Translations under genes and position numbers: made by a program | NCBI GenBank assembly: GCA_016432325.1 | Contig: CP066684.1 | Span: 224,001-288,000, forward strand | Origin: Candidatus Aenigmatarchaeota archaeon | GTDB lineage: Archaea > Aenigmatarchaeota > Aenigmatarchaeia > PWEA01 > JACQIF01 | DNA length: 64,000 nucleotides | Direction: 5' to 3' | Notes under the pieces: generated by a model | Seen by the model: only the letters and a program-made list of their open reading frames with translations | Told to the model about the DNA's origin: nothing | Databases searched by the model: none | Shown here: positions 22,832 through 34,495 of the stretch, piece after piece | Numbering within the stretch: position 1 is the stretch's first letter | Layout: every line of letters begins with the position of its first letter

Positions 22832-23018
22832 CGCGATTGCCGTAGGGGTTCTAGGGTGCACGAAACGCGCTGCGTTTCGGCATACCGCGGTAGAGACCGC
22901 GTGCAGCGCAAATAACGCCACATGGGGTGCCCCTTTTTTGAACGCGCGACCTCCTGCATGCCATGCAGGCGTCATACCGTTGCGCTTTGAGCGCACTTCC
23001 GGGCTAGACTACTGGCCC
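22820..23018 (-). tRNA. tRNA-Ala(GGC) with two non-canonical introns (D-loop ~22 nt, T-loop ~100 nt)
   Basis: GGGCCAG-TAGTCTAGC..GGTATGAC-G-CCTGC-ATGGCAT-GCAGG-AGGTC-GCGCG-TTCAA[intron]AT-CGCGC-CTGGTCC-ACCA; all stems pair. Confidence 0.88.
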
Positions 23019-23147
23019 TTCGGGTTTCCCTATGACATCGGATTACTTAAATGCACAGGGACAACGATAAGCGCCCGATGATGAGCCTTACGGGCGGACT
23101 GAGGGCTCTAACAGCGATTTATATTACTTGGGACAACTCTGTAAAGT

Positions 23148-24329
23148 ATGTCAGAATTCGCCAAGACCGTCATGATAGGCCTTCTTCTTCTGGCCGCGGC
23201 AATCGTTTCCGTCAGCGGCGACATAGACTTTCTCGGCAGCCCTTCAGGCGCCGGCTACCGCTTCTCGCCTTCTGGCGGAACGCTGCGCGCGTCAGAAAGC
23301 GGCGATGGAGAGGACATATTCTTCGTAGGCACGGGACAAGTCGAGGACTTCGCGCGGAAGACGTTGGCGAGCCCGTTCGCCGTCAGCTACCTCAAGCAGG
23401 ACACCGTTCACGCCTCTTTCAAGAACCTGACCGTTGCCAGAGGCCTCTTCCGCAACCAGGAAGAACGCGTCTCCTTCGAGATAGGCACCACAAGGGACAT
23501 TAAGGGAGGCACTCTCAGTGGCAAGGTAATAAACACCAACCGCTACGGGGCTTTCATAGTCAAGCTCAATCAGAAAACTATATTCAACAAGGCGATGAAG
23601 ATAGGGGATACGTTCGAGACAGACGTTTCGCCTGACCTCTTCGTGAACGGCACCAACGAACTCGTCATCGGAGCGACTTCCAGCGGTTGGCGACTGTGGG
23701 CACCGACAGTTTTCATCGCAGACGTCGCTTTCACCAGCGGCCAGGAGGGCGCGATAAGCAAGAACATGGACTTCAGCATACCGTCGGACCGCATTCCCGC
23801 GAACAAGGGCCGCTTCGTGTTCAGGGCCGAGCGAACGTCGGGGAACGGCACGCTCTCGATACGCCTCAACGACGAACAGATTTTCAATCAGGCGCCCAGC
23901 AACAACAGCCTGACCATCGTCGACGTCGCCGGATCCATCGTCAAAACGGAGAACAACGCGACATTCAAAGCCAGCGGCAACGCCAGCTACCAGCTCTCGT
24001 CCTTGGAGTTCATTTACTTCTACAACCGCGGGCCGGCAATCAACGCCACGAAGACGTTCACGCTGACCAAGAAAGACGTGGAAGCTCTCCCCGGAACGCT
24101 TGAAATAAAGATAAGCAAGGTGGTCGGAAGCCCAACTGCTCTGTGGCTGGATGTCGTGCGCCCGGACCGCACGACAACGCGCGTCGTACCGCAGGGAATC
24201 CTGGAAACAGGCAATACGCTGTCCGTCACGCTGACCAAGGCGAACGTCGCCGAAGGCACGAACACCGTGAAGTTCTACGTCACAGGCCGCGGAGGATACG
24301 AGATAAGCAGGTTCGAAGCCAAGCCTTGA
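23148..24329 (+). CDS. membrane-anchored beta-rich surface protein
   Basis: N-terminal TM; beta-strand rich with many NxT/S sequons. Confidence 0.7.
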   Translation: MSEFAKTVMIGLLLLAAAIVSVSGDIDFLGSPSGAGYRFSPSGGTLRASESGDGEDIFFVGTGQVEDFARKTLASPFAVSYLKQDTVHASFKNLTVARGLFRNQEERVSFEIGTTRDIKGGTLSGKVINTNRYGAFIVKLNQKTIFNKAMKIGDTFETDVSPDLFVNGTNELVIGATSSGWRLWAPTVFIADVAFTSGQEGAISKNMDFSIPSDRIPANKGRFVFRAERTSGNGTLSIRLNDEQIFNQAPSNNSLTIVDVAGSIVKTENNATFKASGNASYQLSSLEFIYFYNRGPAINATKTFTLTKKDVEALPGTLEIKISKVVGSPTALWLDVVRPDRTTTRVVPQGILETGNTLSVTLTKANVAEGTNTVKFYVTGRGGYEISRFEAKP

Positions 24330-24388
24330 GCGGCTTTTCAGGCTTAAATAATCTGGGAACGAAGTGCGAATAGACAGTAGGTCTTCAC

Positions 24389-33249: not shown

Positions 33250-33771
33250 ATGCCAACGGGATGCAACATGGAAGGACACGGCCGCATAACAGCCAGAGAA
33301 GCGATTTTATCTCCCAAGCCGATAGGCGTCTGCGAGGATGACGTTAACGTAGGCACATTCGAACTGCTGGGCACCGCCGAAACCGTTATCAGGAGAGGCC
33401 TCGCGGAGTTCGAGAAAACGATAGCGGAATACGGAAGCGCTCTCGCGGAATCCAAAGACTACTCGGGACTCCAGAAGAAGCTGATAGGGCAGCAACGCGC
33501 AATAGACATGATACTGGACGAACACAAAACGCTTGCGCGAGACCAGAGTTTCGAGACTCTCGGAAAGCTCACCAGCAGGTACGACGAACTCGGCATGACT
33601 CTTCTTGGGATGGAAGTCGTATACGAACACACGCATCCTGAATTCTTCACGTCCTTTGACAAGAGATACAACGAAGATCCGGCGTTCAGGGCGCGGTTCG
33701 ATTGCCAGCGCATCAAGAACGAAGTGGAAACGATTCCCGCGTTTGACCACAAAGACCCCGCGTTCGCCTAG
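33250..33771 (+). CDS. hypothetical protein
   Basis: Helical ORF. Confidence 0.5.
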   Translation: MPTGCNMEGHGRITAREAILSPKPIGVCEDDVNVGTFELLGTAETVIRRGLAEFEKTIAEYGSALAESKDYSGLQKKLIGQQRAIDMILDEHKTLARDQSFETLGKLTSRYDELGMTLLGMEVVYEHTHPEFFTSFDKRYNEDPAFRARFDCQRIKNEVETIPAFDHKDPAFA

Positions 33772-34166
33772 TCTCCAAGCTCCTCGATAAGGCGCATCAC
33801 GTTCTCCTTTATCTCGGCCGCGACGCGCTCTCTGTCTTCGGTGCCTGCGGCGCCTACGTCGCGCACGCTCCAGAAGTCGGCTTTGTTGCTTTTCAGAAGG
33901 TATACTGGACACTCCGTTCTGGAGCAAAGAACTATTATCCGATCGGCCTCTTCAACCATGTCAGGTGTGAGCGGTTTTGGTTTCTGTCCCGCCGTCGCGA
34001 CGCCTTCCTTCTCGAGCATGAGCTTGAACGTAGGCGATATCTTCGTGTCCCCTTTGAACTGGGCCGCGGCGCTGACTGCCTTGTGGCGGCGCGCGTAGTG
34101 GTTGAAGTACGCCTCCGCGACCTGGCTGCGGCCGACGTTCGCGCCGCAAACGAACAAAACGAGCAT
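33768..34166 (-). CDS. low-molecular-weight phosphatase / arsenate reductase family
   Basis: VLFVCGANVGRSQVAEA (CX5R). Confidence 0.88.
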   Translation of the reverse strand: MLVLFVCGANVGRSQVAEAYFNHYARRHKAVSAAAQFKGDTKISPTFKLMLEKEGVATAGQKPKPLTPDMVEEADRIIVLCSRTECPVYLLKSNKADFWSVRDVGAAGTEDRERVAAEIKENVMRLIEELGD

Positions 34167-34220
34167 GACATCCGTTCATGAAGAACGTTTATATAGATTC
34201 GGCCAAATTCGCTGTTTGGA

Positions 34221-34495
34221 GGGCCGGTAGTCTAGTGGTTGCGCCTTTTGGGCACGTCCGCCCAAAACCCGCGGGAAAATACGCCTGCCGGCAACGCCAC
34301 ATATGACGTCTGCTTGACGGTTTTTGGCGACCAAGTCGCTGAAAATGAAACTGCAGAAGGTCGCTGGTTCGAACAAGGGGCACTGATGCGCGCGCTGCAC
34401 GCGGTTTCGACCGCGGCATGCCGAAACGCGGCGCGTTTCGTGCACCCTTGAACCCCTACGATACGTGGGGTACGGAAATCCGGCCCGGCCCACCA
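34221..34495 (+). tRNA. tRNA-Val(GAC) with three introns (D-loop ~63 nt, anticodon loop ~32 nt, T-loop ~104 nt)
   Basis: GGGCCGG-TAGTCTAGTGGT[i1]ATGAC-G-TCTGC-TTGACG[i2]T-GCAGA-AGGTC-GCTGG-TTCGAA[i3]AT-CCGGC-CCGGCCC-ACCA; anticodon at 34316-34318. Confidence 0.88.

Follow-up and report, generated by a model that had tools for sequence, protein, structure and literature searches.

Long T-loop introns of nested palindromic DNA in the tRNA-Ala and tRNA-Val genes of an Aenigmatarchaeota genome

Archaeal tRNA introns have median lengths of mostly 12-25 nt. How they arrive in their genes is described as open in a 2026 census of tRNA genes in Asgard archaea, where tests of copying, mobile elements and reverse transcription revealed no general route (10.64898/2026.10.13.758758). 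Here we analyzed two interrupted genes, for tRNA-Ala(GGC) and tRNA-Val(GAC), in a stretch of 64,000 nt (G000:224001-288000, referred to as the window) of a genome of 874,869 bases (G000) from groundwater metagenomes. The nearest relatives of its splicing endonuclease belong to Candidatus (Ca.) Aenigmatarchaeota. In contigs from four DNA runs of a single study the region is identical to the letter, where three of the four runs may be the source of the assembly. Contig breaks occur near 22862-22902 in two runs; we draw no interpretation from them.

Transposed introns have been described for Thermoproteales, where related introns with bulge-helix-bulge (BHB) ends occur across tRNA types (Fujishima et al. 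2010, as presented in PMC4090602). Likewise, similar introns sit in different tRNA types of our genome without copying of the host gene. Introns with a relative in another isotype make up 27% of the T-loop introns here (at 80% identity) and 28.3% of all Thermoproteales introns (10.64898/2026.10.13.758758), by methods that are not identical. Compared to the Thermoproteales introns, those described here are much longer, consist of nested modules with further copies outside tRNA genes and are accompanied by a single-subunit splicing endonuclease (EndA). In ARMAN-2 (Ca. Micrarchaeum), also a DPANN archaeon, an intron occupies the same T-loop position 59/60, and its relaxed motif was cleaved in vitro (PMC3239211). 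That intron has 13 nt and is cut by an epsilon2 enzyme, whereas our introns have 100-105 nt and the enzyme is of alpha4 type with an L3 loop and without the canonical catalytic lysine. Asgard archaea resemble our genome in that nearly all tRNA genes are interrupted, by multiple introns each, and are missed by standard finders (PMC11291895; 10.64898/2026.10.13.758758). Tests for copying from tRNA to tRNA and for mobile-element donors were negative there, whereas both signatures are present here.

On the DNA side, the subterminal hairpins and miniatures of IS200/IS605 elements and the REP, REPIN and BIME repeats (PMC6006769, PMC3733652) are comparable: short hairpins with many extragenic copies and inverted doublets, insertion without target duplication and occasional in-frame copies within genes. 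Our elements differ from them in lacking a GTAG/CGTC tag and a resident Y1 transposase or RAYT, and in having copies within essential tRNA genes, where protein splicing would make them tolerable. In IStrons (PMC4227781), too, part of an insertion sequence is rendered harmless by RNA splicing; they self-splice by a group I ribozyme and encode a transposase, whereas the introns described here are gene-less and would depend on EndA. As presumed BHB tRNA introns the latter are of a known kind. New are their length, the nested build from mobile palindromic DNA, the copying between tRNA genes and a candidate ancestry from transposon ends. No paper on tRNA introns of Aenigmatarchaeota was found in the literature searched, with most subscription journals outside its coverage. 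With a probability of roughly 0.72, we consider the two T-loop inserts to be long BHB-type introns that are spliced by EndA, were assembled from nested mobile palindromic DNA and were copied between tRNA genes.

Two homologous introns at tRNA position 59/60

Both T-loop inserts are composed of an outer part, termed the shell, and a module M located within it. The features of the two genes are as follows (window positions):

22820..23018, minus strand: tRNA-Ala(GGC) gene, 199 nt with two introns; mature tRNA of 77 nt with G3:U70
22837..22936, minus strand: Ala T-loop intron at 59/60, 100 nt, shell plus module M; 3-4-3 spacing, 2/4 central-helix pairs
22857..22905, minus strand: copy of module M in the Ala T-loop intron, a 49-nt two-fold symmetric double hairpin
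22975..22996, minus strand: Ala D-loop intron, 22 nt; placed at 21/22 by its BHB motif
34221..34495, plus strand: tRNA-Val(GAC) gene, 275 nt with three introns; mature tRNA of 76 nt
34241..34302, plus strand: Val D-loop intron, 62 nt, from another multi-copy module family
34320..34351, plus strand: Val anticodon-loop (37/38) intron, 32 nt
34374..34478, plus strand: Val T-loop intron at 59/60, 105 nt, shell plus module M; central helix 4/4 and present in the predicted fold
34396..34444, plus strand: copy of module M in the Val T-loop intron, inserted where the Ala shell also carries it, without target duplication
34445..34456, plus strand: 3' arm of the shell hairpin and invariant foot, Val; the opposite strand resembles the 5' side of an IS200-type right-end hairpin, a suggestive likeness

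The two T-loop introns are 93% identical over 69 nt (BLAST E 1e-23). This agrees with an earlier reading of the window from its letters alone (the original prediction), which had proposed homologous inserts at the same T-loop position of both tRNAs. The ends given there required a one-base correction to 22837-22936 (Ala) and 34374-34478 (Val); the D-loop inserts of both genes and the anticodon-loop insert of the Val gene were absent from it. Its statement that the stems are preserved also holds: among the four differences in the 49-nt double hairpin, three lie in loops and one is a C-to-U change that leaves a G-U pair. None of the four is a compensatory change.

After removal of all introns, mature tRNAs of 77 nt (Ala) and 76 nt (Val) with 7-nt T-loops are obtained. 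In the Ala tRNA all exon stems are intact and G3:U70 is kept. Each gene is the only one found in the genome for its anticodon, with GCC accounting for 32% of the Ala codons and GTC for 40% of the Val codons.

The exons of the Ala(GGC) gene match its orthologue from the same genus at 71/77 positions and the Val gene of this genome at 60/77. For the T-loop intron the order is reversed, with 38/100 identities to the orthologue and 81/105 to Val over the whole intron. Orthologues elsewhere in the order have different introns or none, and the composite of shell and M was found in no other genome searched. Since the same-genus Ala orthologue carries an unrelated intron, the composite was copied from one gene to another recently. 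The Ala copy lacks 14 nt that are flanked by two short direct repeats in the Val copy. Because of this loss, and because its 3' end fits the T-loop poorly, Val is the likely donor and copying probably proceeded from Val to Ala. Families that cross isotypes comprise 9 of the 33 T-loop introns of the genome at 80% identity and 18/33 at 75%; shuffled sequences gave none at 70%.

Duplicated gene ends were observed as well. The last 9 bases of tRNA-Ala recur ~50 bases downstream (window ~22640-22820, minus strand), as one exact and one imperfect copy, with hairpin modules in between, and comparable duplications of the 3' end are seen at about nine other tRNA genes. Some tRNA 5' ends are duplicated ~60 bases upstream with an intron-type hairpin in between (L114:6791-6852 in genome G001; G000 about 757699-758126 and 784209-784540).

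Build of the introns from shell and module M

Removal of the 49-nt M from the Val intron leaves a shell of 56 nt, of which 48/56 positions are identical to the intron of tRNA-Gly(TCC). The Val shell also aligns with the introns of Gly(GCC), Ser(CGA) and Phe(GAA). A shell of ~55 nt is present in six tRNA genes of five amino-acid types, namely Ala, Val and these four. This distribution, together with the different intron of the same-genus orthologue, supports the mobile intron family of the original prediction. The single long, multibranched element that it envisaged is replaced by two nested ones, as the Val intron without M is a shell known from other tRNAs.

Module M consists of two hairpins placed back to back in a symmetric arrangement, with a constant frame and stems that vary; it is inserted at the identical point of the shell in Ala and Val without target duplication. 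One filter yielded 17 genomic copies, of which five lie in tRNA genes and 12 in other places; shuffled genomes gave no copy. The branched core is therefore a generic repeat located mainly outside tRNA genes (12/17), an outcome that the original prediction had itself named as speaking against it. Further copies are nested in other hairpin modules, and some bear an extra insert in their own linker. Over 35 copies the variable stems contain 408 Watson-Crick pairs and two G-T pairs; near absence of G-T pairs is expected for a structure that forms on both DNA strands. The ends of M pair with the central linker in 68/70 Watson-Crick pairs and with each other in 28/35. As the ends covary better with the linker, M is described by two back-to-back hairpins, and a three-way junction was rejected. 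M corresponds to REP/REPIN repeats in being a multi-copy, mostly extragenic palindromic doublet with covarying stems; a GTAG or CGTC tag is not present in its sequence.

Two other ideas were discarded. M is not a nested BHB intron, its flanks giving no outer helix. Nor is the foot of the shell an antisense copy fitted to each T-arm, as it is near-invariant despite differing T-stems.

Among 371 genomes of the phylum, the pattern of M is limited to the source genus and one genus of another order. In a species-wide collection, all 18 of 18 matches with both stems belonged to this second M-bearing genus. A search for a mobilizer common to both, covering about half of the genome of the second genus, matched only housekeeping genes. 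In genome G063 a copy of M lies in frame (18 codons) within a protein gene that by eye resembles glutamyl-tRNA synthetase (L198:1501-1554), which recalls the palindromic elements of Rickettsia.

Interruption of the tRNA genes and predicted splicing

Neither gene was detected by ARAGORN or Rfam, and ARAGORN recovers almost no tRNAs in this genome. For this reason tRNA genes were located with structure descriptors, which left a few anticodons unaccounted for. The 43 genes recovered in this way are 88-369 nt long, and every one of them is therefore interrupted. T-loop inserts (44-143 nt, median 63 nt) are present in 33 of the 42 genes scored. For the central helix, tRNA positions 54-57 were compared with the four bases that lie two positions before the 3' splice site; pairing of 54-57 is the BHB signature for 59/60. 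At least three of four pairs were found at 59/60 in 28 genes, compared to a null mean of 5.6 and a maximum of 14. The T-loop insert of tRNA-Lys(TTT) reaches 2/4. For the Ala intron only one other register, 57/58, scores better than 59/60 (3/4), and it has no flanking intron helix.

The genome encodes a single EndA of alpha4 type, with an L3 loop that has been linked to broad specificity, as well as RtcB. The EndA gene is located on the minus strand at L001:1474-2079 (G000 about 849.8-850.4 kb). We infer that both inserts are protein-spliced BHB introns at 59/60, cut by EndA and sealed by RtcB. The case for splicing is one of anatomy and need, as single genes serve codons used at 32% and 40%. 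A group I or group II ribozyme core is not indicated in the introns, which have 100-105 nt and no Rfam match.

A second and larger T-loop intron family, unrelated to the shell, is found in the genes for Tyr, Trp, Pro, Val(TAC), Leu(TAA), His, Glu and Ala(CGC), i.e. eight genes at 70% identity. On the minus strand at G000 698587-698774 lies a tRNA-Ile gene whose anticodon is UAU and whose T-arm is heavily interrupted; a gene for Ile(CAU) was not found. An odd, intronless tRNA-like gene at about 582671-582760 (plus strand) has an anticodon loop like that of Leu CAG, a 9-bp acceptor stem and no encoded CCA.

Possible origin from transposon ends, alternatives and proposed mechanism

A strict pattern had made the shell appear private to this genome; that claim was withdrawn, since a looser variant is found elsewhere. 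This look-alike has the start position, stem and foot of the shell and a slightly longer stem base. It fills T-loop introns in seven other Aenigmatarchaeota genomes from four families and in one Micrarchaeota genome, a count that leaves out one further pattern match (G170) of unchecked context. There are up to 11 copies per genome, and identical hairpins occur across families. A search that did not require the T-loop showed it scattered as a repeat through genomes of Woesearchaeota, Altiarchaeota, ANME, Atribacteria and Clostridia. Of 120 further matches, a simple pattern, which may overlook some introns, assigned only 5 to introns (in T-, D- and anticodon loops); several of the matches lie directly behind tRNA genes.

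On its opposite strand, the look-alike matches the last of the hairpins that follow the IS200-type Y1 transposase genes of a DPANN clade. The Y1 tnpA homologues examined (10/10) all end with this hairpin, with TTCA or a sequence differing from it in one letter directly behind, and in two copies of one protein divergence begins right after the hairpin. A covariance model built from the tnpA ends alone matched the hairpins of look-alike introns in antisense orientation at 8/9 loci (E 7e-5 to 0.34). The look-alike of other genomes is homologous to a tnpA-linked terminal hairpin that precedes a cleavage tetranucleotide, and in the T-loop copies the place of the tetranucleotide is occupied, on the other strand, by bases 56-59. 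A matching IS200/IS605 left end was not apparent in the intron from reading left ends; no formal search was made. Viral contigs contained no true matches to M, to the look-alike in T-loop context or to the Y1 protein. As a candidate ancestry, descent from a transposon end is supported for the wider family and only suggestive for the diverged shell of the Ala/Val pair.

At L451:546-576, L411 and L508 the look-alike forms a D-loop intron in a Nanoarchaeia genome, where it is near-identical to a T-loop intron found in G063, as well as anticodon-loop introns of Iainarchaeum, which is a sign of transfer between phyla. It is multi-copy and intergenic in several bacterial and methanotroph genomes (L409-L520: Clostridia, Atribacteria, ANME). 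At an Anaerolineales locus (L412) it lies just upstream of an IS200 tnpA.

Several observations weigh against EndA-spliced introns built from mobile palindromic DNA. The central helix of the Ala intron at 59/60 has only two of four pairs, with correct spacing. EndA has an alanine at the position of the catalytic lysine, as do 48 of 49 Aenigmatarchaeota relatives; tyrosine and histidine are retained, and the highly conserved, lysine-rich L3 loop might substitute for the lysine. The shell of this genome was missed by the covariance models R1 and R2 and by nhmmer. A weight matrix ranks all six shell copies among the top 16 of 455 sites, with deletions that were chosen post hoc. A Y1 transposase, a reverse transcriptase and an IS110 recombinase were not found in this genome, no Y1 protein exceeded the cut-off in G000 or G001, and Y1 protein occurs in 0/22 genomes of the order and in only one of the eight genomes with a T-loop look-alike, so that its presence does not follow that of the family. 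For M, no mobilizer was identified.

The low score of the Ala helix, together with a 3' end that is deletion-damaged relative to Val, would also fit an unspliced Ala copy in a pseudogene, with GCC and GCU decoded by another tRNA. The intact exon stems and G3:U70, the lack of a second Ala(GGC) gene for a codon at 32% and the equal score of Lys(TTT) make this quite unlikely. That Ala and Val are duplicates of one intron-bearing tRNA gene is barely conceivable: GGC and GAC are one base apart and the 5' ends are similar, but the Ala exons are nearer to the Ala orthologue than to Val, and the T-stems and D-loop introns are unlike. Movement at the RNA level, by reverse splicing of circular introns into other tRNAs via EndA and RtcB and subsequent copy-back into DNA, would account for the exact reuse of 59/60 in many tRNAs, and both enzymes are present. 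We regard it as unlikely nonetheless, given the missing reverse transcriptase and a look-alike that is mostly extragenic and also bacterial; the position is explicable by survival only where a BHB motif forms.

A selected role of the introns has been considered in two forms. The excised intron could be a functional circular RNA, as the original prediction had proposed, acting as guide or regulator. Its folds are stable (z -2.9 and -4.2), archaeal tRNA introns circularize, and the one in tRNA-Trp serves as a C/D guide (PMC12558985, PMC4090602). Neither of our introns contains a C box, however, and only one isolated D-like 4-mer occurs, in Val. The Val gene has no Rfam match at E<=1, and turnover is fast, the composite being absent from the other genomes searched and the same-genus Ala intron being unrelated. 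M is two-fold symmetric and almost without G-U pairs, and matches of at least 12 nt elsewhere are other repeat copies or scattered short ones. A functional RNA is accordingly very unlikely. Masking of integration (att) sites, also suggested in the original prediction and in the literature on archaeal tRNA introns (PMC4090602), could act on elements with longer cores, which might be excluded tracelessly. Speaking against it are elements of 13 kb and 7.5 kb that are integrated at tRNA genes with T-loop introns. Their integrases adjoin tRNA-Gly(GCC), which has the same shell, and tRNA-Thr(CGT), and their cores of 14-15 nt lie wholly in the 17-nt 3' exon; retention of the introns as masks is thus not supported and appears unlikely. 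The 13-kb element at tRNA-Gly(GCC) spans window positions 53305-64000 and beyond, with the far att copy at 53305-53318. Its cargo includes a methyltransferase fusion of restriction-modification type (59003-61615) and a HEPN-domain gene (53409-54233).

Based on these comparisons we propose the following mechanism for the assembly of EndA-spliced introns from mobile palindromic DNA. The shell would descend from a right-end hairpin of IS200/IS605 type, an origin that we slightly favor, moved in trans by a single-strand (HUH/Y1) transposase that has presumably since been lost from the genome. As a ~55-nt intron the shell spread among six tRNA genes, as the comparison of the genes shows. In the next step, likewise shown, the dispersed double-hairpin repeat M entered one shell copy once, without target duplication. 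Finally, a copy of the composite, free of exon sequence, reached a second tRNA gene; while this outcome is evident from the alignments, the route was probably a DNA-level conversion primed on common T-loop flanks. Only the splice motif at the two ends is required by the cell, so that the interior of such an intron is free to accumulate hairpins. On the best reading, intron bodies are passengers made of small mobile palindromic DNA.

A broader proposal is tentative, and we rate it somewhat below even odds: a share of the DPANN tRNA introns may be domesticated transposon ends. An IS200-type right end would land antisense in a tRNA gene, T-loop bases 56-59, on the other strand, would replace the cleavage tetranucleotide of the transposase, and the hairpin would survive because EndA splices it out. 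It would then spread between tRNA genes and distant lineages and gather hairpin modules.

The Ala/Val pair is one example among 33 T-loop introns, and the interest lies in the family. The locus offers filled and empty versions side by side, with a nested order of events, and names an IS200-type right end from DPANN archaea as candidate donor, with an enzyme accessible to assay. It explains why tRNAs of such genomes are almost entirely missed by standard tools, and it draws attention to an EndA without the canonical catalytic lysine that must process about a hundred long introns. If true, domesticated ends would parallel IStrons, though without genes and with splicing by protein, and would give archaea a concrete way to gain introns.

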